NCBI GenBank assembly: GCA_934096595.1
Contig: CAKOMH010000001.1
Span: 494 to 64,493, forward strand
DNA length: 64,000 bases
Origin: an uncultured Bacilli bacterium
GTDB taxonomy: Bacteria; Bacillota_I; Bacilli_A; RF39; UBA660
Direction: 5' to 3'
Under the pieces are notes generated by a model. That model was not told where the DNA came from. It saw only the letters and a program-made list of their open reading frames with translations, and ran no database searches. This document shows positions 19,917 to 64,000 of the stretch, piece by piece (positions within the stretch are counted from its first letter, which is position 1; each line of letters opens with the position of its first letter). Both the position numbers and the translations under genes were made by a program.

Positions 19917-21443
19917 TTAATTTTCTTTTTCTAAAGCTTCATCAACAAACAAGATATCAGTATCTTTCATTTCGGGAGGACAAGCAATATCCATATATTT
20001 AAGGATAGTCGGAGCAACCATAGTTAAATCACCATTTTTTAATTTAACATTATTATCCGTAACAATAAAAGGAACAGGATATAAAGAATGCGTTGTTATA
20101 ACATTATCATTATCATCAAGCATATAATCACAGTTTCCATGATCAGCCATTATAAATAATGTATAATCATTTTCTTGAGCTTTAGAATAAATACTTCCTA
20201 AACAATAATCAACAACTTCTAAAGCCTCAATTGTTGCCTCCAAATTACCAGTATGTCCAACCATATCTGGGTTAGCAAAGTTAACTAAAATAAAATCATA
20301 ATCTTTATCTAAACATTCTAGACATTTTTTTGTTACTTCTTTACAACTCATTTCTGGTTTTAAATCATAAGTAGCAACTTTAGGACTAGGAACTAAATAG
20401 CGATCACATTTTTCTAATTTATATTCCTTGCCACCATCAAAGAAGTAAGTAACATGAGCATATTTTTCCGTTTCCGCAATACGAGCTTGTGATAATCCTA
20501 ACTCTTCTAAGTAAACACCTAAACTATTTTCAATATCTGGTGTATCTAAAAAATGATAAGATTTTTTAGCTTCTTCAATTGGATAAATCGTAAACACTTG
20601 TAAATTTTTATATTTAATCGTGTCATATTCTTTAAAACTATTATCTGTTAAAACTTGTAAAATTTGCTTTGCACGATCAGGACGATAATTCATCCATAAA
20701 ACAACATCGCCATCTTGTATTTTAGGTGTATCTTCCATCACAATTGGTGGCAAGAATTCATCAGTAACATTTTTTTGGTAGCAAAAATTAATTGCTTCTT
20801 TTAAATTTTTAACTCTAGCCCCTGTTCCTAAAGTCAACATATCACTATATAATTTAGTTCTATCCCATTTCTTATCTCTATCCATGGCATAATATCTACC
20901 ACAAACACTAGCTACTTCATTATAACCGTACTCTTTTAACTTAGCATTTGCCTCATCAATATAATTTTGACTGGTAGTTGTTCCTGTATCACGGCCATCA
21001 GTAATAGCATGAACATAAACTTTTTCAATTCCCATTTGGTGCAAATAATCAAGCATCCACAAATTAAACTTAATATGGGAATGGATACCACCATCTGATA
21101 GCAATCCTAACATATGAATTGGCTTATCATTTTCTTTAGCATATTCAACCATTTTTAAAAAATTTTCGTTTTTTAAAATTTCTTTTTTATTAAACCAATC
21201 GGTTATTTCCATAAAGTTTTGTTTAATTAAACGCCCCGCGCCAATTGTTGTATGCCCAACTTCACTATTGCCCATTTGACCTTTTTCTAAACCAACCGCT
21301 CTTTCACTAGCTAGTAATTGACTATGAGGATATTCATTCCATAATTTTTTAAAGTTTGGCATTTTAGCTAATTTTACCGCATTACCATGAATGGCATTAC
21401 GAAGTCCAAACCCATCTAATATTATTGTTAATACTTTTTTCAT
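19917..21443 (-). CDS. gpmI: 2,3-bisphosphoglycerate-independent phosphoglycerate mutase
   Basis: iPGM family throughout (…LDGFGL…, metal-binding motifs). The start was set to the ATG at 21443 (MKKVL) behind an AGGAG RBS; the track start at 21452 is a GTG inside the RBS. Confidence 0.93.
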   Translation of the reverse strand: MKKVLTIILDGFGLRNAIHGNAVKLAKMPNFKKLWNEYPHSQLLASERAVGLEKGQMGNSEVGHTTIGAGRLIKQNFMEITDWFNKKEILKNENFLKMVEYAKENDKPIHMLGLLSDGGIHSHIKFNLWMLDYLHQMGIEKVYVHAITDGRDTGTTTSQNYIDEANAKLKEYGYNEVASVCGRYYAMDRDKKWDRTKLYSDMLTLGTGARVKNLKEAINFCYQKNVTDEFLPPIVMEDTPKIQDGDVVLWMNYRPDRAKQILQVLTDNSFKEYDTIKYKNLQVFTIYPIEEAKKSYHFLDTPDIENSLGVYLEELGLSQARIAETEKYAHVTYFFDGGKEYKLEKCDRYLVPSPKVATYDLKPEMSCKEVTKKCLECLDKDYDFILVNFANPDMVGHTGNLEATIEALEVVDYCLGSIYSKAQENDYTLFIMADHGNCDYMLDDNDNVITTHSLYPVPFIVTDNNVKLKNGDLTMVAPTILKYMDIACPPEMKDTDILFVDEALEKEN

Positions 21444-21832
21444 TAAAATCACTCCTAATAAATATTGATACTAAATTTAACTTTTTATCCATCTTCTTCT
21501 TTGATTATTTAAAATTACTCTCACATTTTCTCTATTTATTGCAAGCCTAATTACTTTAATAAAACAGCTTTAATAAGTAGTTATTAAAAAATTATTTAAC
21601 TATGATAAAACTAAACTTATACCAATCTCTTTTCTTATATTAGCAATCAAATATTACCATAAAAGACCCTTTCTTTTCAAGATTTATTCCATCATTTTCT
21701 AAACTTTATAAGATTAATTTGTTAAGAATAATTTGCCTCATAATACAATACCTTATATCTTTTAATTTTGCTAAAAAAACAAATAGAAATAAAAACATTT
21801 AATAAAATAGAATGAAAAAAATAGAAAAAATG

Positions 21833-46671: not shown

Positions 46672-47721
46672 TTATCTACTAACTTTTTCTTTAACATCAG
46701 CACTTTTTAAGCAAAAAGATTCCAAATAAGGTATTAACACATTTTTATATAATTCTTCAAAAGAACTATAATTTGGCATATTCTCTTTTATAAGATCCGC
46801 TATTTCCTCAGTTCTAACAAAGCCAACTTTCTTAAACCATTCAAAATCTGGTCGCATTTCTTCTCTTGATATCCATTTTTCACTCATCAAGGCCGAAACA
46901 GCCCTTACAAAATATTCATATAACAGTGTTTTAGTCATTCCTGAATAAGTCTTAGGTAAACCATTTGTCAGTGCTTCCTTGATTAAATAATCATAATTAG
47001 AAACAGTATCATAATACTTATCCACAATTGGATTAACAAAATGATGAGCAAATTCATGATTTATCGAAATAAAATTATATCTTTTATTTACAGAGAACTT
47101 ACCATTTTCGTACTTAATCGCTCTAGTACAATATAGAAAATTACCAATGGTTGAAGAAAACCCACCATTCATAAAAATAGAACCACTAATATTTAAATCA
47201 ATATCTTCCTTACTTCCAAAGAAATTTAAAACATAAGCCTTATTATATCCATCTGGTAATTTACCCAAAGCCTCTTGTTGCAACTTTAATTCTTCTTTAT
47301 TATCTTCTAAAATTTTATTCATATCAAAAGATAAATAAACTTCTTTTACTAGTTCTAAATATTCTCTTAAATCCTCTTTTTTAAAAGGTTTATTAATTTT
47401 AACAATATCTTCATATCTAATAGAAAAATCCTCATTAAATAAATAAGCTATATGATTGTAATAAGCCTCATCATCTATATCTAACATATATTTTTCTAAT
47501 TGAGGAAATTTATCAAAATCAATCTTACTTACAATATCGTTAAAATACTTAGTATTTGGAAATTCTACCCAATCAAATTCATCTTTATTTTTATAATTAT
47601 TTTTTATTACATAACTACACACGATAGCATGAATAAAATCTACTCTCTTATCTAATCCAAATTTTATATCACACATAATATCATCTCTTTTCATCACTTT
47701 ATAATTTTTACTATTTATCAA
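46672..47721 (-). CDS. DUF4932-like putative zinc metallopeptidase (HEFAH, followed 25 aa later by KEALT, gluzincin-like)
   Basis: INHEFAHHFVNP motif. No signal peptide. Confidence 0.55.
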   Translation of the reverse strand: MINSKNYKVMKRDDIMCDIKFGLDKRVDFIHAIVCSYVIKNNYKNKDEFDWVEFPNTKYFNDIVSKIDFDKFPQLEKYMLDIDDEAYYNHIAYLFNEDFSIRYEDIVKINKPFKKEDLREYLELVKEVYLSFDMNKILEDNKEELKLQQEALGKLPDGYNKAYVLNFFGSKEDIDLNISGSIFMNGGFSSTIGNFLYCTRAIKYENGKFSVNKRYNFISINHEFAHHFVNPIVDKYYDTVSNYDYLIKEALTNGLPKTYSGMTKTLLYEYFVRAVSALMSEKWISREEMRPDFEWFKKVGFVRTEEIADLIKENMPNYSSFEELYKNVLIPYLESFCLKSADVKEKVSR

Positions 47722-55791: not shown

Positions 55792-55844
55792 AAAACTCTA
55801 TTACGCAATTTTCTATTTTTTTAGATTTTGCGTAATAGAGTTTT
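55792..55844. terminator. Perfect 17-bp inverted repeat (AAAACTCTATTACGCAA-N19-TTGCGTAATAGAGTTTT) between convergent genes. Bidirectional terminator or hairpin; the right arm contains the stop codon of the Gly-rich gene.
   Basis: Arms at 55792-55808 and 55828-55844 are exact reverse complements. Confidence 0.6.
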
Positions 55845-57258
55845 ATTCATCTATACTCGCCAAAGTTATTCTGGCATAACCATTGCCTTTTTTAGCACAA
55901 TAACTAATAGGCGTTTCTTCATTACAAGTAGTTGATATTGTTTTCGTACTCTCTTCATTAGACTCTTCACAATTGTAACAGTACATAACTTTGTTAGTTA
56001 AAAGCAAATTCCCGATATAACCTGAGCCACCGCCGCCAGCATTAAAATCTTCTCCGTAAGCAGAATTTATATTTCCACCATAAAATCCGCCACCGCCACC
56101 AGACACACCGTTACTATAGCCTATTCCTGTTCCGTCGCAACCTTTTCCAAAAGCACAGCCAGATATTTGATTTCCGCCAAGTCCACTATTATTTTCTCCT
56201 TGCATTCCAGCTATTCCACCGCCAGAACCGCCGTGTTGAGAATAGTTTCCAGCACCACCACCACCAGATACTATGTAAATACTATTTTTATAATTTTCTA
56301 AACTACTGAGCAAGCCTGATTTTGTGGCAATATGAGTTGCTCCCCCACCTCCGCCGCCAGTTTCAGATTGATTCGTATTTATTTCAAATTTGTTATTATC
56401 CCAAGTTCCAGAACCACCGCCATTATAACCGCCAGCAGTATCTTGACCTTTAACAGCTGTTGAGCCGGTGCCGCCAACATTTAAGTAAACAACATCATTT
56501 TTAGATAAAATAACAAATCCAGATGCAAAACCACCATATCCCCCCAACTCTAGTAAACGACCATCTATTATCGAACTTCCACCTTGTGCGCCCCATGTTT
56601 CTAACTTATAAGTTCCCGATACTGGGGCAATAAAAGTCTGCTCTGCTCCTGTATAATCAAAATTAAATACCATATCACCAGTATAATTAAAATTAATTGG
56701 TTTACCCACTACTACTATTTTAGACTTAAAAGTTTTAATCTCATTATTTAAATCTTCTAAAGTAGTATTATAATCTATCCATAATCTTAAAGAATAATCT
56801 TTACTTTGCCCTGATTTCAAAATACCTGTAGTTAATTTTCTACTTTCAATACTACTAGTATTTACTTTATTTGCATTATCAAAATTACTAAGTAGGTTTA
56901 TTTCTTTAATATCATTATTTTCCAACATGACATCAATAAATTTACTGGATAAAGTACTATTATTTAACACTTCTAAATTAACTGAATACTCAGCAGTTAT
57001 ATCACAAGTATTAATAACCGTAAAAGTATAAGGAGTTAAACTTTTACCCTTATCATTACTTATTGGATAAGCATTATCTAAATTAATACTATTCTCTTGA
57101 TTACTTATAGATAAGTCAAAACACTTAGATTCTGCCATATTAGTAGTATCTTGACTAACCGATATATTCCACATCGAATAAGATACTCCTATACCCAACA
57201 ATATTATTAATACTAAACTTATACTTATAAATATTACACTATTTTTCATAACTTCCAC
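55843..57258 (-). CDS. Secreted glycine-rich repeat protein: an N-terminal signal-anchor and Ig-like domain, then a FIAPVSGTYKLETWGAQGG motif followed by long GGxGG/GGGGG tracts and a Cys-containing C-terminal region
   Basis: Direct reading. Reminiscent of bacterial glycine-rich (Gly_rich-like) secreted proteins. No search was possible. Confidence 0.55.
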   Translation of the reverse strand: MEVMKNSVIFISISLVLIILLGIGVSYSMWNISVSQDTTNMAESKCFDLSISNQENSINLDNAYPISNDKGKSLTPYTFTVINTCDITAEYSVNLEVLNNSTLSSKFIDVMLENNDIKEINLLSNFDNANKVNTSSIESRKLTTGILKSGQSKDYSLRLWIDYNTTLEDLNNEIKTFKSKIVVVGKPINFNYTGDMVFNFDYTGAEQTFIAPVSGTYKLETWGAQGGSSIIDGRLLELGGYGGFASGFVILSKNDVVYLNVGGTGSTAVKGQDTAGGYNGGGSGTWDNNKFEINTNQSETGGGGGGATHIATKSGLLSSLENYKNSIYIVSGGGGAGNYSQHGGSGGGIAGMQGENNSGLGGNQISGCAFGKGCDGTGIGYSNGVSGGGGGFYGGNINSAYGEDFNAGGGGSGYIGNLLLTNKVMYCYNCEESNEESTKTISTTCNEETPISYCAKKGNGYARITLASIDE

Positions 57259-57386
57259 TATTCCTTATTATGTTTCAGTATAATATTAACAAAATAAAAT
57301 CAATATTTATGCAATGCTTTTTGTCTTATAATATGCAATCTATAATTGCCATACTTTATGTAATACAATCTTATTAGGAGTTACTT

Positions 57387-57578
57387 ATGAATGCGTTTAA
57401 AATATCACCTAAAGGAGAAACTGATAATAAAACTATTCGTTTTCCCTTAGAACTTATTGAAAAAATTGAAAAAGCAATCGTTGGTCAAGATATAACTTTT
57501 AGTAGATTTGTTATCTTAGCCTGTGAATATGCTCTTAATAATATGGAAAAAGAAGACAAAGATAAAACTAGTAAATAA
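57387..57578 (+). CDS. Small ribbon-helix-helix (CopG/Arc-like) protein
   Basis: TIRFPLELIEKIEKAI beta-strand plus helix pattern, 63 aa. Confidence 0.45.
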   Translation: MNAFKISPKGETDNKTIRFPLELIEKIEKAIVGQDITFSRFVILACEYALNNMEKEDKDKTSK

Positions 57579-57611
57579 ATTAAAAAAAGTCGTCTTAAAA
57601 CGGCTCTTTAT

Positions 57612-59318
57612 TTATTTTCTTTTTTTTATTAATAATCTATCTGCTAAAACATCATCTAACATTTTTAGCGAATCATCTTCATTAATATCTGTATAAAGAT
57701 AATTATTACCAATAATCTCTTGGATTTTAGGAAATTTCTCTAATAACTTACTTAATTTATTAGTAAATAAATAACTATTATTATCATTTATATTCTCTTC
57801 GGAAATACCAGAACTTATATTAGTAAATACATCTTTTAGATCTATCTTTTTATATTCTTCATAAATCTTTTCTATATCTTCTTCTTTAGTATAGTAAATA
57901 GTACTTAAGGCTTTAAAGAAACTATCTTTGATTATTTTATATTGTTTACAAAACTTATCATAACAATAAGTTTCATTATTATTACCTATATCATCTACTA
58001 AGAAGGCTCCATCTGCAATCTGATTAGCAATTAAATAATATAATAAAATATTATCTTCTAAACTTAAATCATTATTATCTATATTATATTTAATTAAATT
58101 ACTTATAGCAATTTTAAATATAGATATATAATGTAAATTACTAAGTGTATCATTTACTTTAAAAATATCATCTTTATCATAATTATCTTTACTACCTAAT
58201 AACTTAATTATATAATTATTTCTACAATCTAAAGCATCCATTGTATATATAATACTTAATATTTCTTTCTTTTCTTCAATATTATTAGCGCCCAAATAAC
58301 TAAATAAAGCCTCTATATCTTCATCATTAATAGCCTTATAATAATCTTTTATTCCATAGTCATTAAAAAGAGAGCATAATAACAATTTATTTTCTAATTT
58401 ACGATAATATTCATAAGTATAAGCAAACTCCTTGCTTAAAGATTCGTAGCCGCCTTCTATTCCTAAATTATATAAAATACTTTCCGCACTTGCTTCCATT
58501 AGAAAACTATGATTATGTCCATTGAAGAAATCAAGCTTTAAAACACCGCCGTTATCTAACTTATCGCTACAAGCCCTTTGTCTTACATGGCTAAGTTCAT
58601 GTTTTACTGTTTCATCAATCCTAGCCAATATTTTATCCAGATCATAACTACTATTTAAAATATTATTTAAGCATATTTCAATAACATTATTACTATAAGA
58701 ATAACTAGCATAGGCAATATTTTCTTCATCATGGCTTGCAATATTGGGAACAAAAACGACACTTAATTCTGTAAAACTATGGATATCTTCATTAGTTCCA
58801 GTACTTAAAACAAATCCTAAATAACTATATAAAGCATTATAAATATCATCTTTTATTAAAGCAATATCTTTTTCACTAAAAGAATAACCATATTCATTAG
58901 TAGCCTTAATATTATTAAAGTAATCCTCATCAAAAAATGAAGTATAATCTAATTCTTTTAGTTCATTTGCCAAGTTAAAAGAATTAACTTTTATTTTAGC
59001 AATCAACTCATCAATAGTAATATTAAAATCTTTTTCACACAGAATATTATCTCTATTAATAAGTTCATCTACTTCTGAATCATTTAATTTAACAACATCA
59101 GTAATTCCCAAATCCGTTAAATTTTTTATATTTTCTTGTAATAAAACTTCTAAGTCTTCTGTTCTATTATTTGAATCAGCCTTACTAACCATATCAATTT
59201 TATTATCTTGTTTACATCCGCAGGCATTTATGGTAACTGTTAAACATAATAGAAAAGATGCTATTCTTCTATTAATATTTTTCACTTTTTCCCCCTGTAA
59301 TTGCCTACTATTATACAC
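57612..59318 (-). CDS. Secreted protein or lipoprotein with an HExxH zinc-metallopeptidase motif (VKHELSHV, followed 30 aa later by MEASAE). Paralog of 59343..60935.
   Basis: Signal peptide with a Cys-containing lipobox-like INACGC. The family is distantly like DUF4932 (HE[FL]xH...EA). Confidence 0.55.
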   Translation of the reverse strand: MYNSRQLQGEKVKNINRRIASFLLCLTVTINACGCKQDNKIDMVSKADSNNRTEDLEVLLQENIKNLTDLGITDVVKLNDSEVDELINRDNILCEKDFNITIDELIAKIKVNSFNLANELKELDYTSFFDEDYFNNIKATNEYGYSFSEKDIALIKDDIYNALYSYLGFVLSTGTNEDIHSFTELSVVFVPNIASHDEENIAYASYSYSNNVIEICLNNILNSSYDLDKILARIDETVKHELSHVRQRACSDKLDNGGVLKLDFFNGHNHSFLMEASAESILYNLGIEGGYESLSKEFAYTYEYYRKLENKLLLCSLFNDYGIKDYYKAINDEDIEALFSYLGANNIEEKKEILSIIYTMDALDCRNNYIIKLLGSKDNYDKDDIFKVNDTLSNLHYISIFKIAISNLIKYNIDNNDLSLEDNILLYYLIANQIADGAFLVDDIGNNNETYCYDKFCKQYKIIKDSFFKALSTIYYTKEEDIEKIYEEYKKIDLKDVFTNISSGISEENINDNNSYLFTNKLSKLLEKFPKIQEIIGNNYLYTDINEDDSLKMLDDVLADRLLIKKRK

Positions 59319-59342
59319 AAACTTTGGAAAAAGTAAAGTTTA

Positions 59343-60935
59343 TTATTTTAAAACGAATCTAAATTCACTATCATTCTTTATTAAGCCATCTTTAACTATC
59401 AATAAATTATTATAATTAAAATCACTTAAAAAAGTACCACCATTTACTATATTTCTAATTTTAGGAAACTTATTTACTAAATTGGCTATTTTGCTAACAT
59501 CTTCACCACTTACTTTAGATTCTTTAACATAACTACTTATATTGCTTAACCAAATTTCTTTATCTTTATTATCATAATAATCTTTTATATCTTCATAACT
59601 AAGATTATATATTGAACTTAAATAATTAAAATATATCTCTTCAATCAACTTATAATTATCTAAAAATTCTTTATAAAATGTATAACTAACTTCATGAGTA
59701 GTATAATCATAATTACCAAAACTAGCACTATCTAATATATTTACTAAGATAAAATGATATAATATTAAATTATCATCCAAACTTAATACTTCTTTTTGCC
59801 TATTATAAAGTATTAACTGGAGAACACTATTTTTTAATATATAACTTTCAATAATTCCCCCAGTACTATCTGTTAAAAATTCATTTATATTAATATCATT
59901 TAATTTACTAAAATCATCACTATTAATTAATCTACTCCAATAACTATTTCTAACTAATCTTCCATCAATTAACCACAACATACTTAATAAATCTTTTATT
60001 TCTTTATCACTATAAGCATTAAAATAGTTACAAAAATTTAAAATATCGCCTTTAAATAAAGTCTCATAATATTTGTCTATAGATTTATCATTATCTAAAA
60101 AACTTAATAAAAGCAACTTACTTTCATACTTTCTTTCTTCTAAGTTATTATAACTATAATTAAAGTTCTTATTAATTGGTTGATAATTATTTTTTAAAAT
60201 ATTATAGTTATAAGAAGTTGCAACCGCCTCATTTAAGAAAGATATTCCCCCTTCTCCTTTTAATTTATAATGACATTTGTTATCTTCGCAAGGTACTACA
60301 AACATATGATTAAATTCATGATTAATTGTATCAAATAAATTCATATATAAATCATCCAAGTTATTAGCATTCTTTAATATATTATTTAAAGATATAACTA
60401 TCAAATTATCTTTTTCAAAATATTCTCCCAGTTGTTCTTGGTCTTCAAAATCACCCATTAATATTTTTAAAGATAATAACTTATGAACATCATCTTTTCT
60501 TCTCTTATCTAAAAGTACTCTATTAATAATATCTAATATAGTATTTTCTATATATTTTCTTATTTCATCATCAGCTATATCACTAATTAATAAATAATTT
60601 TCTTTATCTTGAATATATATTTTACTATTTAAATTTATAATGTTATATAAATCTATTTTATTGCCCGTAAAGTTATAATCACAAGAAACATTACTAATTT
60701 TACCTATTTTTATTAAGTCTTGTAATTCTTTATCGCTTAATAAAGTCTTAGCATTTAAAGGCATGGTAATATCATTTACTTGATTTATAAAATCAATGTC
60801 ACTCTTAGTATCATCTATAGCCTCTGCTTTAGCCTTAATTAAATGATTTTCTCTTCCATTTATAAAAGAAACTATAGTTATAGAAAGGCAAAGTCCTAAT
60901 ATCGCTCCCATCTTGCCTAAGCTTTTAATTGTCAT
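59343..60935 (-). CDS. Secreted HExxH putative metallopeptidase (INHEFNHMFVVP, followed 27 aa later by NEAVAT). Tandem paralog of 57612..59318.
   Basis: Signal peptide with AKA-EA cleavage. Shares a C-terminal ...KFPKI[QR].I.G... block with its neighbor. Confidence 0.55.
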   Translation of the reverse strand: MTIKSLGKMGAILGLCLSITIVSFINGRENHLIKAKAEAIDDTKSDIDFINQVNDITMPLNAKTLLSDKELQDLIKIGKISNVSCDYNFTGNKIDLYNIINLNSKIYIQDKENYLLISDIADDEIRKYIENTILDIINRVLLDKRRKDDVHKLLSLKILMGDFEDQEQLGEYFEKDNLIVISLNNILKNANNLDDLYMNLFDTINHEFNHMFVVPCEDNKCHYKLKGEGGISFLNEAVATSYNYNILKNNYQPINKNFNYSYNNLEERKYESKLLLLSFLDNDKSIDKYYETLFKGDILNFCNYFNAYSDKEIKDLLSMLWLIDGRLVRNSYWSRLINSDDFSKLNDININEFLTDSTGGIIESYILKNSVLQLILYNRQKEVLSLDDNLILYHFILVNILDSASFGNYDYTTHEVSYTFYKEFLDNYKLIEEIYFNYLSSIYNLSYEDIKDYYDNKDKEIWLSNISSYVKESKVSGEDVSKIANLVNKFPKIRNIVNGGTFLSDFNYNNLLIVKDGLIKNDSEFRFVLK

Positions 60936-61014: not shown

Positions 61015-62098
61015 TTATTTTTTTAATTTTAATACTGACTCCATAATAGCCAATATATCTCCATCTAAAACTTTGAAGGCTTGACTAGTTTCATATCCAC
61101 TTCTTAAGTCTTTTACCAAAGTATAAGGTTCTAAAACATAATTTCTAATTTGACTACCAAAATTAATGCTATCACTAATTCCCTTTTCTTTATTTAACTC
61201 GGCTTCTTTTTTTTCTACTTCTAATTGATACAATTTAGATTTTAGCATTTCCATGGCTCTTTCTTTATTGCGTAGCTGACTTCTTTCTACTTGGCAAGAT
61301 ACCACTATTTTGGTTGGCAAATGCGTAATTCTAACCGCCGAATCACTAGTATTTACCGATTGACCACCAGCCCCACTCGAATGAAAAACATCTATTTTTA
61401 AGTCTTCATCTTTAATTTCAATATCACTTACTTTATCAAATTCTGGCACTACTGTAACAGAAGCAAAGGAAGTATGGCGTCTTTTATTAGAATCAAACGG
61501 TGATATTCTTACTAGTCTATGGACCCCTTTTTCGCCTTTAAAATATCCATAACTCATATTGCCACTAATTCTTAAAGTTACCGATTTTACCCCTGCTTCT
61601 TCGCCTTTTAAAAAGTCAATAACCTCATATTTATATCCATTTGCCTCACAAAATCTCTCATACATTCGAAGTAACATCGAAGCCCAATCCATAGCCTCGG
61701 TTCCCCCCGCCCCCGGATGAATTTCTAAAAAGCAATTTAAATTATCATAAGGCCCATTAAGTAAGGTTGCTACTTCTAATTCTTCAATTAATTTTTCAGC
61801 ATTTAAAAACTCGGTCTCTAAATCATCTTTTAGGCTATCATCTAAACTAACTAACTCTATTAAGTCTTTTAACCCATCAACGATACTACTAGCCTTCTTT
61901 AAATCACTAAGTTCTTTTTTTAAATTAATAAGTTCACTATTAACTTTATTGGCATAAACATTATCATTCCAAATATTAGGTTGATTTAAAATATCCTCTA
62001 ATTCTTTTATTCTTTTGTCTTTAGCACTAACATCAAAGTGACCTCCCAATATCACTTAATTTATTTACTAACACATTATATCTTTCATTAATATCCAT
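61015..62098 (-). CDS. prfB: Peptide chain release factor 2 with a programmed +1 ribosomal frameshift. Frame 0 gives MDINERYNVLVNKLSDIGRSL and stops at TGA; translation continues in the +1 frame as DVSAKDKR...
   Basis: SPF tripeptide motif (RISPFDS) and GGQ (SGAGGQS). The frameshift cassette GGGAGG-TCA-CTT-TGA-T lies at about 62030-62050. ATG at 62098 with a GGAGA RBS. The track ORF 61015..62055 starts at an artefactual GTG. Confidence 0.9.
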
Positions 62099-62834
62099 TA
62101 TTTATTCTCCTTAAAACCATATCTATATCTAAAAGAGTAGTATTATCATCTACCTTTAAAGACTTTTGTAAACTAAAATAAAACTCCTCTAAACTCTCAG
62201 TAACACTAATTATACCACATTCTAAAGCCCCTCGGCTAAAATCTACTAATCGAAAGTGATTTAAAACTTCATAAAGACTATAATCCCCTAAATATTTAAA
62301 AATACTTCTTAAAATTATTTGCCAAATTTTATAAGCCATCTCAATATATAATTTATCGCTATCATAATTTTTATCAATATTAGATAAATCAAAATCTAAT
62401 AAATATAAATTACCATTTTTATAAAGCATATTACCAGAAAGAATATCAACTAAGTTAATATTATTATTAGCCAATAGTCTAATACTTTCTAATAACTTTT
62501 GATAAGCCTCCAATAACTCTTTTATCTTCGTTTCTCTATTTATAAAATTAACATTAGAAGCGTTTATAAACTTCGTATTATATCCCAAGATAGCCTTATC
62601 AGTCATATATATATCACGAGGTAATATTAACTGACTTTCACCATCTAACTTTCCTAATTTAACTAATAAATTAAATATATCTTTTCCAATTTTTTGGTCT
62701 AAACTACGATAACAATCTAAAAATATTTTTACGATATAATCATTTTCTTGAAAATACAATTTATTTGTACTTTTTACTTTAAACTCCTTTAATTTTGGTA
62801 TATCTTTAACACTTTGCACTTTAATTATTGCCAT
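62088..62834 (-). CDS. Mini protein-kinase-like fold protein (Kdo/RIO/CotS-like phosphotransferase), paralog 1. It has a beta3-Lys (IVKIF), a catalytic D-x4-N (DILSGN) and a DFD (LLDFD).
   Basis: Direct motif reading. It overlaps the prfB start by 11 nt and paralog 2 by 10 nt. Confidence 0.5.
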   Translation of the reverse strand: MAIIKVQSVKDIPKLKEFKVKSTNKLYFQENDYIVKIFLDCYRSLDQKIGKDIFNLLVKLGKLDGESQLILPRDIYMTDKAILGYNTKFINASNVNFINRETKIKELLEAYQKLLESIRLLANNNINLVDILSGNMLYKNGNLYLLDFDLSNIDKNYDSDKLYIEMAYKIWQIILRSIFKYLGDYSLYEVLNHFRLVDFSRGALECGIISVTESLEEFYFSLQKSLKVDDNTTLLDIDMVLRRINNGY

Positions 62835-63550
62835 AACTTCTCATTCCTTAAACATCTTCTTATATCACCAACGGTTTCTATTTTTTCTTGACTCTTTCTT
62901 GCTATTTTTAATCTTAGTAAATTTATAAAAGCAATATAATCCGTACTTTCTAAGTTATCAATTCTTTCTTTTATATAATTAATATCTATATCATTTAACC
63001 AATTTAAATCATAGGAATCAAGCATTCTATCAATTATTAAATTAAACAAAGACATTCCCATTATTTTATAAGCCATATCTATATCATCAAAATAAATACA
63101 GTTATCAAAATCAATTAAATATAAATTATTTTTATCAAATAAAACATTTCCGCCCCAAATATCGGGATTTAAAATACCAATAGCACTTATTTTTTGAATA
63201 TCTTCTAAAAGCCCCATTACCATTTTAATAACCTTATTAATAAATATATCTTCAGTTAAGTAATCCAACGGTTTTCCTAAACAGATAGGCATACTATAAC
63301 CTAGAAATTCTTTTTCAGTTATATATAAATTTTGAGGTAACTCTAAATATTTAATGTCCTTTAATTCTGATAACTTTTCTAATACTTGCAATCTATTATA
63401 ATTAGTCCCATCGCTTAATAATCTATCACAAATATTTAAGACTTTTAAATACTTACCATTTTTATAATAGATTTTACTTCTACTCCATATCATTAATTCT
63501 TTATCCGGAAGTCTTAAATCTTCAATACTTTTTACCTTTACTATTGCCAC
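62825..63550 (-). CDS. Mini protein-kinase-like fold protein, paralog 2 (YLKVLNI, DIWGGN, LIDFD)
   Basis: Same motif set. The C-terminal ETVGDIRRCL block is shared with paralog 3. Confidence 0.5.
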   Translation of the reverse strand: MAIVKVKSIEDLRLPDKELMIWSRSKIYYKNGKYLKVLNICDRLLSDGTNYNRLQVLEKLSELKDIKYLELPQNLYITEKEFLGYSMPICLGKPLDYLTEDIFINKVIKMVMGLLEDIQKISAIGILNPDIWGGNVLFDKNNLYLIDFDNCIYFDDIDMAYKIMGMSLFNLIIDRMLDSYDLNWLNDIDINYIKERIDNLESTDYIAFINLLRLKIARKSQEKIETVGDIRRCLRNEKLWQ

Positions 63551-63552
63551 AT

Positions 63553-64000
63553 TTATCCTCTTTTAGTTAAATTAAGACACATTCTTAAATCGCCAACTGT
63601 TTTTATTCTTTTCCTAGTATAAGTTTCCAATTTCCATCTTAATAGTTCAAAATATAAATCATAATTAGTACTTCTAAAAGACTTAAATTCTTGTTCTAAA
63701 GTCTCTAAATCTCTTTCCATTAATAAGGGTGACCCAAAACCATCTTTTACTAAACTTAAATATACAGTTTGAAATATATTATGTAAAGTTCTTAAATATA
63801 CTCGATCATCGCAATAAATACTATTATCAAAATCAATTAAATACATTCTTCCATCATATAAAATATTATTAGAAGTAGTATCATAATTAAATATCTTATT
63901 ATCTGCAAGTATTCTTATATCTTTTCTAAGTAATTTAAAAGATTTTATTACATCATCATATTTACTATTTAAACTAATATCCATTATTGTCTTAGCATCT
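63553..64000 (-). CDS. Mini protein-kinase-like fold protein, paralog 3. It is 5'-truncated by the window end; the reading frame stays open to 64000.
   Basis: YLIDFD and the C-terminal KTVGDLRMCL block. No stop is found upstream of the M at 63984 within the window. Confidence 0.5.
   Translation of the reverse strand, partial: DAKTIMDISLNSKYDDVIKSFKLLRKDIRILADNKIFNYDTTSNNILYDGRMYLIDFDNSIYCDDRVYLRTLHNIFQTVYLSLVKDGFGSPLLMERDLETLEQEFKSFRSTNYDLYFELLRWKLETYTRKRIKTVGDLRMCLNLTKRG

Follow-up and report, generated by a model that had tools for sequence, protein, structure and literature searches.

Thermolysin and neprilysin, gluzincins of MEROPS clan MA(E), combine an HExxH motif with a downstream ExxxD motif, whose Glu serves as third zinc ligand and whose Asp sets the orientation of a His ligand, and an HExxH with a general-base Glu is overwhelmingly the signature of a hydrolase. 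In anthrax lethal factor and the related M34 (ATLF-like) proteins, which are secreted Gram-positive gluzincins, the third-ligand motif reads E-F-F-A-E. Across known gluzincins the third-ligand Glu follows the HExxH motif at a spacing of 24-64 residues (PMC3267712), and the M60-like/enhancin mucinases (PF13402), extracellular and often lipoprotein-anchored putative gluzincins of gut microbes, were first recognised by this HExxH...E pattern (PMC3267712). Here we describe two adjacent genes, A and B, in a 64,000-nucleotide (nt) stretch of DNA from an uncultured Bacilli bacterium (GenBank assembly GCA_934096595.1, contig CAKOMH010000001.1, positions 494 to 64,493; the whole stretch is called the window below). 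With moderate confidence, they encode tandem exported and probably membrane-anchored zinc metallopeptidases of an undescribed gluzincin-like family that also carries a putative structural metal site.

The tandem pair and its unnamed family

Genes A and B are true paralogs, 31% identical across 406 amino acids (aa; BLASTP, E 5e-35), in agreement with the tandem paralogy proposed in an initial annotation of the DNA. Both are real and under purifying selection, with ratios of nonsynonymous to synonymous substitution (dN/dS) of 0.17-0.22 for gene A and 0.23-0.29 for gene B; prfB and YitT lie at 0.03-0.09. Gene A occupies 59343..60935 on the minus strand, as do all features of the pair given below, and encodes a 530-aa member of an unnamed HExxH...ExxAES family (family hidden Markov model, HMM, E 1.5e-110). 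The longest open reading frame (ORF) of gene B is 57612..59318 (568 aa), within which a GTG at 59285, 11 codons inside, is most likely the start because an AGGGGG ribosome-binding site lies 5 nt before it and orthologues begin there with MKNINRR; the probable gene is then 57612..59285 and its product 557 aa long (family HMM E 1.9e-121). These two ORFs and a 63-aa frame at 57387..57578 had been called in the initial annotation and all three are borne out, as is the shared C-terminal KFPKI block (59457..59471 in gene A, 57723..57737 in gene B). The Pro of this block is kept in 135 of the 144 aligned family members to which all conservation counts refer, with positions in gene A numbering.

An exhaustive profile search of 1.84 billion cluster representatives recovered 269 at E<=1e-3, of which 140 also pass E<=1e-30; almost all are full-length proteins of 450-600 aa. 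A word-indexed search found just 13 relatives, all unnamed metagenome proteins, and a second one with a 144-sequence profile (E<=1) added one fragment, no new full-length member and no annotated remote relative. No functional name is attached to any member read from ten clusters, no Pfam or NCBIfam model matched A or B above threshold, and when the window proteins, together with 88 family members, were scanned with Pfam, NCBIfam and PHROGs, nothing above threshold emerged for the family. Nothing suggests a mobile origin, as tblastn against phage and plasmid collections returned zero matches. Among genome records, the closest are 'Mycoplasma sp. CAG:956' and metagenome-assembled genomes from Hadza guts labelled uncultured Bacilli or Tenericutes; the cluster closest to gene A holds 550 member sequences, and G+C is 22-29% in all related loci fetched. 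The family is thus small and unnamed, and is found in very AT-rich, uncultured, mostly gut-derived Bacilli.

Pairs of A and B, always with A first, are kept across 40-95% identity, and paralogs stand in tandem or within about 2 kb of each other in twelve related loci. Copy number differs from two to four among close relatives: third copies occur in loci L001, L005 and L008, and L001 holds another 6 kb away (L001 13388..15094 and 20946..21593; L005 12442..14142; L008 11132..12820). A distant genome has an independent tandem pair (L016 6001..9766). Since paralogs are tandem or near in the twelve loci and a separate pair exists in that distant genome, tandem duplication is a recurrent trait, and the varying copy number together with the independent pairs indicates repeated local duplication within the family.

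Predicted active-site motifs and comparison with known zincins

Both proteins carry an HExxH motif and a downstream Glu motif, as the initial annotation had pointed out. In gene A, HEFNH (60306..60320) lies inside a predicted helix of residues 193-212 and would provide two zinc ligands and the general base (H206, H210 and E207), and EAVATS (60213..60230, E236 to S241) lies in helix 233-246 with E236 as the predicted third ligand and a Thr at position 240. In gene B (557-aa numbering), HELSH occupies 58587..58601 and residues 229-233, within predicted helix 216-235, and EASAES (58479..58496, E264 to S269) in helix 261-273 preserves the full family motif, with E264 as predicted third ligand and E268 as second acid. 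The gap between the two motifs is 25 residues in gene A, 30 in gene B and mostly 25-31 across the family. By sequence and predicted structure, the Glu therefore sits where the third ligand of a gluzincin is expected, on the following helix and at a spacing inside 24-64.

The family consensus reads HELNHxRQxxCxCR ... SFLxESSAES. Its key columns are conserved as H206 (139/144), E207 (135), H210 (136), E236 (137), A239 (134), E240 (137) and S241 (136), and the complete H-E-H-E-E set is present in 131 members; C85, N103, D149, C216, R268, E271, Y289, Y290, Y443 and P491 are also near-invariant. The proposed second-shell acid, four residues after the predicted ligand Glu (ExxxD/E), is E268 in gene B and is found in 137 of the 144 members; gene A has Thr at this place. 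The column pair H210-E236 ranks 14 of 86,903 by mutual information after average product correction, because a few degenerate members lose both residues together. Among ORFs of at least 100 aa in the window, three contain HExxH (A, B and gene C, discussed below), against 0.2 expected by composition. A two-residue insertion shifts the alignment locally, and the Y264N deviation that gene A seems to show there was discarded as a product of this shift.

Roughly 5-9% of family members are without HExxH and/or the ligand Glu and are still full-length, which suggests that they are pseudo-enzyme offshoots. In alignment A2 these are P0041, P0087, P0114, P0116, P0143, P0145 and P0156, and all except P0156 keep a Cys/His tetrad that is described further below.

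AlphaFold models were built for gene A on an 11-sequence alignment (predicted local distance difference test, pLDDT, 79.7; predicted template modelling score, pTM, 0.80) and for gene B on an 88-sequence alignment (pLDDT 89.4, pTM 0.88). In both, the HExxH-helix blocks reach a pLDDT of about 88-97. The N-terminal part consists of a hydrophobic helix, a disordered linker, a helical region and three short strands, and is followed by the HExxH helix, a loop, the Glu-motif helix and a large helical C-terminal domain with one hairpin. In the gene B model the strands are residues 175-178, 193-196 and 201-204 and precede the HExxH helix 216-235. This order of elements in the models is that expected of a zincin core, and in both of them the HExxH lies inside a helix; a non-helical context, which the initial annotation had named as a reason to abandon its proposal, was not encountered. 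From motifs and modelled topology we infer zinc binding and peptidase activity.

Several results weigh against this assignment. With Foldseek, neither model matched a PDB chain at E<=1e-3, and the gene B model matched nothing in the viral BFVD collection at the same threshold; zincins occurred only among insignificant matches (E 1-5), namely leukotriene A4 (LTA4) hydrolase, collagenase G (ColG), anthrax lethal factor, selecase, 3lmc and dipeptidyl peptidase III (DPP III). When the PDB was searched by sequence, with A and B singly and with profiles A1 and A2, nothing reached E<0.02 and no zincin fell below E 1.4, and there is no significant similarity to an established peptidase family, all Pfam and NCBIfam matches being below threshold. 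Gene A has a Thr at position 240, where 137 of 144 members have Glu. Genomic context gives no clue to a substrate, because distant members lie in unrelated neighbourhoods, beside ftsZ, beside serS or, as another tandem pair, elsewhere. A weak PDB match of profile A1 to AetD (E 0.03) was gone with a deeper profile.

Given this lack of a significant Foldseek neighbour, it is motifs, predicted topology and weak profile matches that carry the zincin assignment. The weak matches recur among the 88 members scanned and, below threshold, fall in zincin families only: DUF6782 in 18, SprT-like in 6, Zincin_1 in 4, BSP in 2 and DUF2268 in 1. In members inspected individually, the DUF6782 and Zincin_1 matches align to the strand and HExxH helix. 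The uncharacterised exported metallopeptidases of the initial annotation therefore stand as an exported, unnamed and motif-conserved pair, but membership in an established zincin family was not found.

Alternatively, A and B could be exported metal-binding or structural surface proteins rather than peptidases, with a site that is otherwise hydrolytic or binds metal, or with a fold that is not that of a zincin. This would account for the lack of a significant zincin neighbour in structure or sequence despite a high-confidence model, for a mostly helical protein with no recognisable domain, and for the roughly 9% of members that have lost the motif yet remain full-length. It is harder to reconcile with an H-E-x-x-H...E-x-x-x-E pattern that is complete in 131 of 144 members at gluzincin spacing and helix placement, with recurrent weak Pfam matches that all point to zincin families, and with the general association of HExxH and its general-base Glu with hydrolases. 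On balance this alternative appears unlikely, and a peptidase function is preferred.

The Thr at position 240 raises a narrower question about gene A. It is fixed in every relative read at >=92% identity to gene A (from the cluster of 550 members), and the A clade has lost the lipobox common to most of the family. Perhaps, gene A is here a weakened partner or pseudo-enzyme and gene B the active enzyme of a sub-functionalised tandem pair, an arrangement with which the conserved A-B order over 40-95% identity would agree. However, H206, E207, H210 and E236 are intact in gene A and its dN/dS of 0.17-0.22 is that of a constrained protein, A-clade orthologues of sister species at 61-78% identity keep Glu240, and in other gluzincins second-shell mutations as a rule reduce activity without abolishing it. 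Such a division of labour is rather unlikely. For the preferred peptidase reading, loss of the second-shell Glu (T240) may make gene A in this organism attenuated or altered in specificity.

Among described systems, A and B resemble thermolysin and neprilysin in layout: the HExxH helix, a Glu at a spacing known from gluzincins on the helix after it, a small sheet before the active-site helix and a helical lower domain beyond it. The family motif E-x-x-A-E, with an acid four residues after this Glu, parallels the E-x-x-x-D of the clan in gene B; gene A has Thr there. Unlike in these enzymes, there is a long N-terminal helical region, a conserved Cys/His/Asp tetrad and anchoring by a lipoprotein signal, and no similarity is detectable by sequence or Foldseek. 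Anthrax lethal factor shares with A and B secretion from Gram-positive bacteria and a third-ligand motif resembling the E-[AS]-x-A-E of the family, and its chains recur among the insignificant Foldseek matches. These matches have E 1.4-3.5 and TM-scores of 0.12-0.14, which is not significant, and its Glu spacing is about 44 residues against 25-31 in the A/B family. In the 88-member scan ATLF does not rank among the top 25 Pfam families by frequency, and A and B have no ATLF match at E<=1.

The M60-like/enhancin lipoproteins are a plausible functional analogue, given their extracellular location and frequent lipoprotein anchoring in gut microbes. PF13402 matches neither A nor B, however, and is likewise outside the 25 most frequent families of the scan; A and B have no carbohydrate-binding modules, and nothing points to mucin as a substrate. 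The minimal zincins DUF6782, Zincin_1 and SprT-like supply the only recurrent weak Pfam matches, all below cut-offs. For DUF6782 (PF20573), the best family member reaches 17.7 bits against a gathering threshold of 27, the 18 of 88 matching members are covered over about 40-55 of some 550 residues, and A and B themselves are unmatched.

Export signals, a putative second metal site and a DUF4932 protein

The N-termini of both proteins consist of a basic stretch followed by a hydrophobic helix. In gene A, residues 1-27 (60855..60935) form a hydrophobic N-terminal signal or anchor, and gene B has a lipoprotein-like signal peptide ending TINA|C (59220..59285). The lipobox was tested with PROSITE PS51257, [LIVMFWSTAG](2)-[LIVMFYSTAGCQ]-[AGS]-C, which gave no candidate in gene A and which gene B misses at position -2 only (Asn). 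Within the family, 58 of 144 members match the strict pattern, 103 of 147 have [AGST]C in the first 50 residues, and the consensus N-terminus ends GC. These sequence features indicate that A and B are exported and that most family members are probable lipoproteins, the lipobox of gene B being degenerate; as it has no lipobox, the A clade is a predicted Sec substrate or signal-anchored. Of the signal peptides and single lipobox proposed initially, the hydrophobic N-termini hold for both proteins, but the lipobox of gene B does not satisfy the strict pattern.

A feature that had not been noticed in the initial annotation is a conserved tetrad of Cys, His and Asp residues, which probably forms a second, structural metal site. 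In gene A it spans 60282..60683 (C85 at 60681..60683, H151 at 60483..60485, C216 at 60288..60290 and D218 at 60282..60284) and in gene B 58563..59039 (C83 at 59037..59039, H169 at 58779..58781, C239 at 58569..58571 and D241 at 58563..58565), so that both proteins have the combination C-H-C-D. Across the 144 members, column 85 is Cys in 135, column 151 Cys in 92 and His in 49, column 216 Cys in 140, and column 218 Cys in 85, His in 26, Asp in 25 and Glu in 4. The combinations found are CCCC (52), CHCC (30), CCCH (22), CHCD (17), CCCD (8) and CCCE (2), and columns 151 and 218 co-vary modestly (rank 137 of 86,903).

Metal ligation is favoured because the residues that take the place of Cys in the tetrad are His, Asp or Glu, with Ser and Ala never seen, and because 64 of the 144 members would otherwise be left with an unpaired Cys; two disulfides instead of a metal are disfavoured on the same grounds. 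The tetrad is also present in members without HExxH, and since it is kept where HExxH is lost it would be independent of catalysis. A role of C85 as a 'cysteine switch' on the catalytic zinc is disfavoured, as C85 too is kept in members without HExxH.

The third HExxH protein of the window, gene C (46672..47721, minus strand, 349 aa), is a cytoplasmic DUF4932 protein (Pfam PF16286, 37.6 bits against a cutoff of 28.7, E 2.2e-9), and the DUF4932-like label given to it initially is therefore correct. Its HEFAH lies at 47044..47058 (minus strand). The true start is probably M16 at 47676, because relatives start at this Met, and the annotated TTG start is probably 15 codons too early. Invariant in its family are H222, E223, H226, E249 and E269 together with an NGGFSS motif, and the third ligand could be E249 or E269, the latter within LLYEYFVRA. 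A literature search on DUF4932 and DUF6782 found nothing useful.

The initial annotation had counted A, B and gene C as three members of one uncharacterised, DUF4932-like metallopeptidase family within 15 kb. In all three, HE[FL]xH is followed 25-30 residues on by an EA motif, HExxH and conserved Glu residues after it are common to DUF4932 and the pair, and membership of all three in the zincin superfamily at large is conceivable; hhalign with profile A1, shallow at 11 sequences, aligned 52 columns around HExxH to gene C at a probability of 53%. With the 88-sequence profile A3 this fell to 19 columns and 0.8% against gene C alone and to 1.1% against the gene C family alignment. BLASTP of gene C against A and B aligns only 18 residues around HExxH, and gene C is absent from an unfiltered hmmsearch of the window ORFs with the A/B family HMM, listed to about E 2.5. 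PF16286 is carried by 16 of 18 relatives of gene C, whereas A and B have no DUF4932 match in Pfam at E<=1. Gene C also differs from the pair in length (about 334 aa), in domain layout and in localisation, having no signal peptide. As the profile-profile signal collapses with depth and the family HMM misses gene C, the three-member claim is unsupported and a common family is extremely unlikely; gene C is unrelated to the pair at the family level, and the three share at most a general zincin motif. A lack of family-level similarity beyond HExxH, which the initial annotation itself had named as refuting its proposal, is thus what was found for gene C.

Neighbouring genes and possible role

The pair lies directly downstream of prfB and converges on the small gene at 57387..57578, both as described in the initial annotation. 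Between the end of prfB and gene A are 79 nt and no terminator-like site, and the gap between A and B is 24-57 nt. The sole terminator-like stem-loop, at 57588..57605 between gene B and the small gene, is flanked by an A-run and, on the opposite side, a T-run, and is likely a bidirectional terminator that closes a prfB-A-B transcription unit. Because the only such stem-loop sits after gene B, gene order and terminator placement are compatible with a single unit of this kind.

prfB itself (61015..62098, minus strand) has a classical programmed +1 frameshift, with a frame-0 start at ATG 62098, a Shine-Dalgarno-like GGGAGG and then CTT TGA at 62038..62033 before the +1 frame; for this reason the ORF list shows only its 346-aa downstream part. 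Where the upstream flank was read (L001-L003, L015), prfB is preceded by three tandem paralogs, each about 240 aa long, and followed by A and then B. In the window these paralogs lie at 62088..62834, 62825..63550 and 63553..64000 (minus strand). They have no Pfam match in the members tested, each shows D-x-x-x-x-N ... (I/L)DFD, and one weakly matches a kinase catalytic loop/DFG region in the PDB (E 0.06-0.3); they may be small kinase-like proteins. A functional link of the pair to prfB was dropped, as the adjacency is limited to the close lineage and distant members stand beside ftsZ, serS or other genes; adjacency to prfB and to the small gene is lineage-specific synteny.

The 63-aa small gene (57387..57578, plus strand), convergent on gene B, belongs to the YlcI/YnfO family and is a predicted ribbon-helix-helix (RHH)/Arc-like gene (NCBIfam NF041551, 33.6 bits against a cutoff of 30, E 3e-8). 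It also matches phrog_949 (E 1e-6) and, weakly, an Arc-like repressor family, which is consistent with an RHH fold but is no proof of it. Compared with loci L001, L008, L002, L010 and L011, it is much better conserved than its neighbours, synonymous sites included: its dS is 0.09-0.12 against 0.6-1.1 in flanking genes of the same genome pairs. In its upstream region, which faces the gene at 55843..57258, TATGCAAT boxes occur at 57308 and, 24 nt on, at 57332, and their TGCAAT core is invariant in six loci; they are probably an operator shared with this divergent surface-protein gene. The product of the latter (minus strand) is 471 aa long; it carries a membrane or signal segment at the N-terminus and contains an ALK/LTK glycine-rich domain (PF12810, E 7e-33). 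It evolves fast, with 60-71% identity where prfB has 95-97%, and is replaced by Flg_new-domain proteins in distant relatives.

The initial annotation had placed the RHH gene next to the pair, and one could imagine a single functional module of regulator and targets, or one resembling a toxin-antitoxin system. A gene of 63-65 aa indeed follows the last paralog, convergently, in nine related loci, and is 98-100% identical where gene A is 77-95% identical. On its other side in these loci, transcribed divergently, stands a variable gene for a surface protein with an ALK/LTK glycine-rich or Flg_new domain, and the conserved TATGCAAT repeats are shared with that gene, not with A or B. In addition, the orientation towards the pair is convergent with a terminator in between, the distant family members L013, L014 and L016 have no small-gene neighbour, and L005, L007 and L009 have paralogs but no RHH match. 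No evidence was found for such a link or for regulation of A or B by the small gene, such a module is very unlikely, and the 63-aa gene is probably outside the peptidase unit.

For the pair itself, the proposed peptidases would have the bulk of each protein on the outer face of the membrane. Both HExxH His residues, on one helix, and the leading Glu of E-x-x-A-E-S, on the helix that follows, would hold the catalytic zinc, the Glu of HExxH would act as general base, and the second Glu of E-x-x-A-E would be a second-shell acid comparable to thermolysin Asp170 or neprilysin Asp650. Cys85, Cys/His151, Cys216 and Cys/His/Asp218 would bind the structural metal, a site that would link the helical N-terminal region with the loop that directly follows the active-site helix. 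Cleavage of extracellular proteins or peptides, for amino-acid supply or with host or surface proteins as targets, would be the likely role. For the cell-wall or spore-coat function suggested initially, no evidence was found.

Gut lineages of the RF39/RFN20 type are reported to have genomes of 1.5-1.9 Mb from which several amino-acid pathways are missing, and to import oligopeptides (PMC7301438). A part in nutrient supply through extracellular proteolysis would fit this published picture of related small-genome lineages. A bolder and tentative proposal is that A and B represent a structurally distinct lineage of surface zinc metallopeptidases with no neighbour in the PDB, gluzincin-like and with a second, structural Cys/His/Asp metal site, confined to reduced-genome, AT-rich gut Bacilli and repeatedly duplicated in tandem, which may serve as the main extracellular protease for amino-acid scavenging or for cleavage of host proteins.

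One more HExxH family with no known substrate is routine in metagenome mining, and no existing idea is overturned by it. If the assignment is true, the A/B proteins would form a new family in the classification of metallopeptidases, and the putative second metal site would be a testable structural feature. The small-genome uncultured Bacilli in which they occur are common in human gut metagenomes and have almost no experimentally characterised surface proteins, and the family is a candidate for the means by which these bacteria acquire amino acids or interact with their host.

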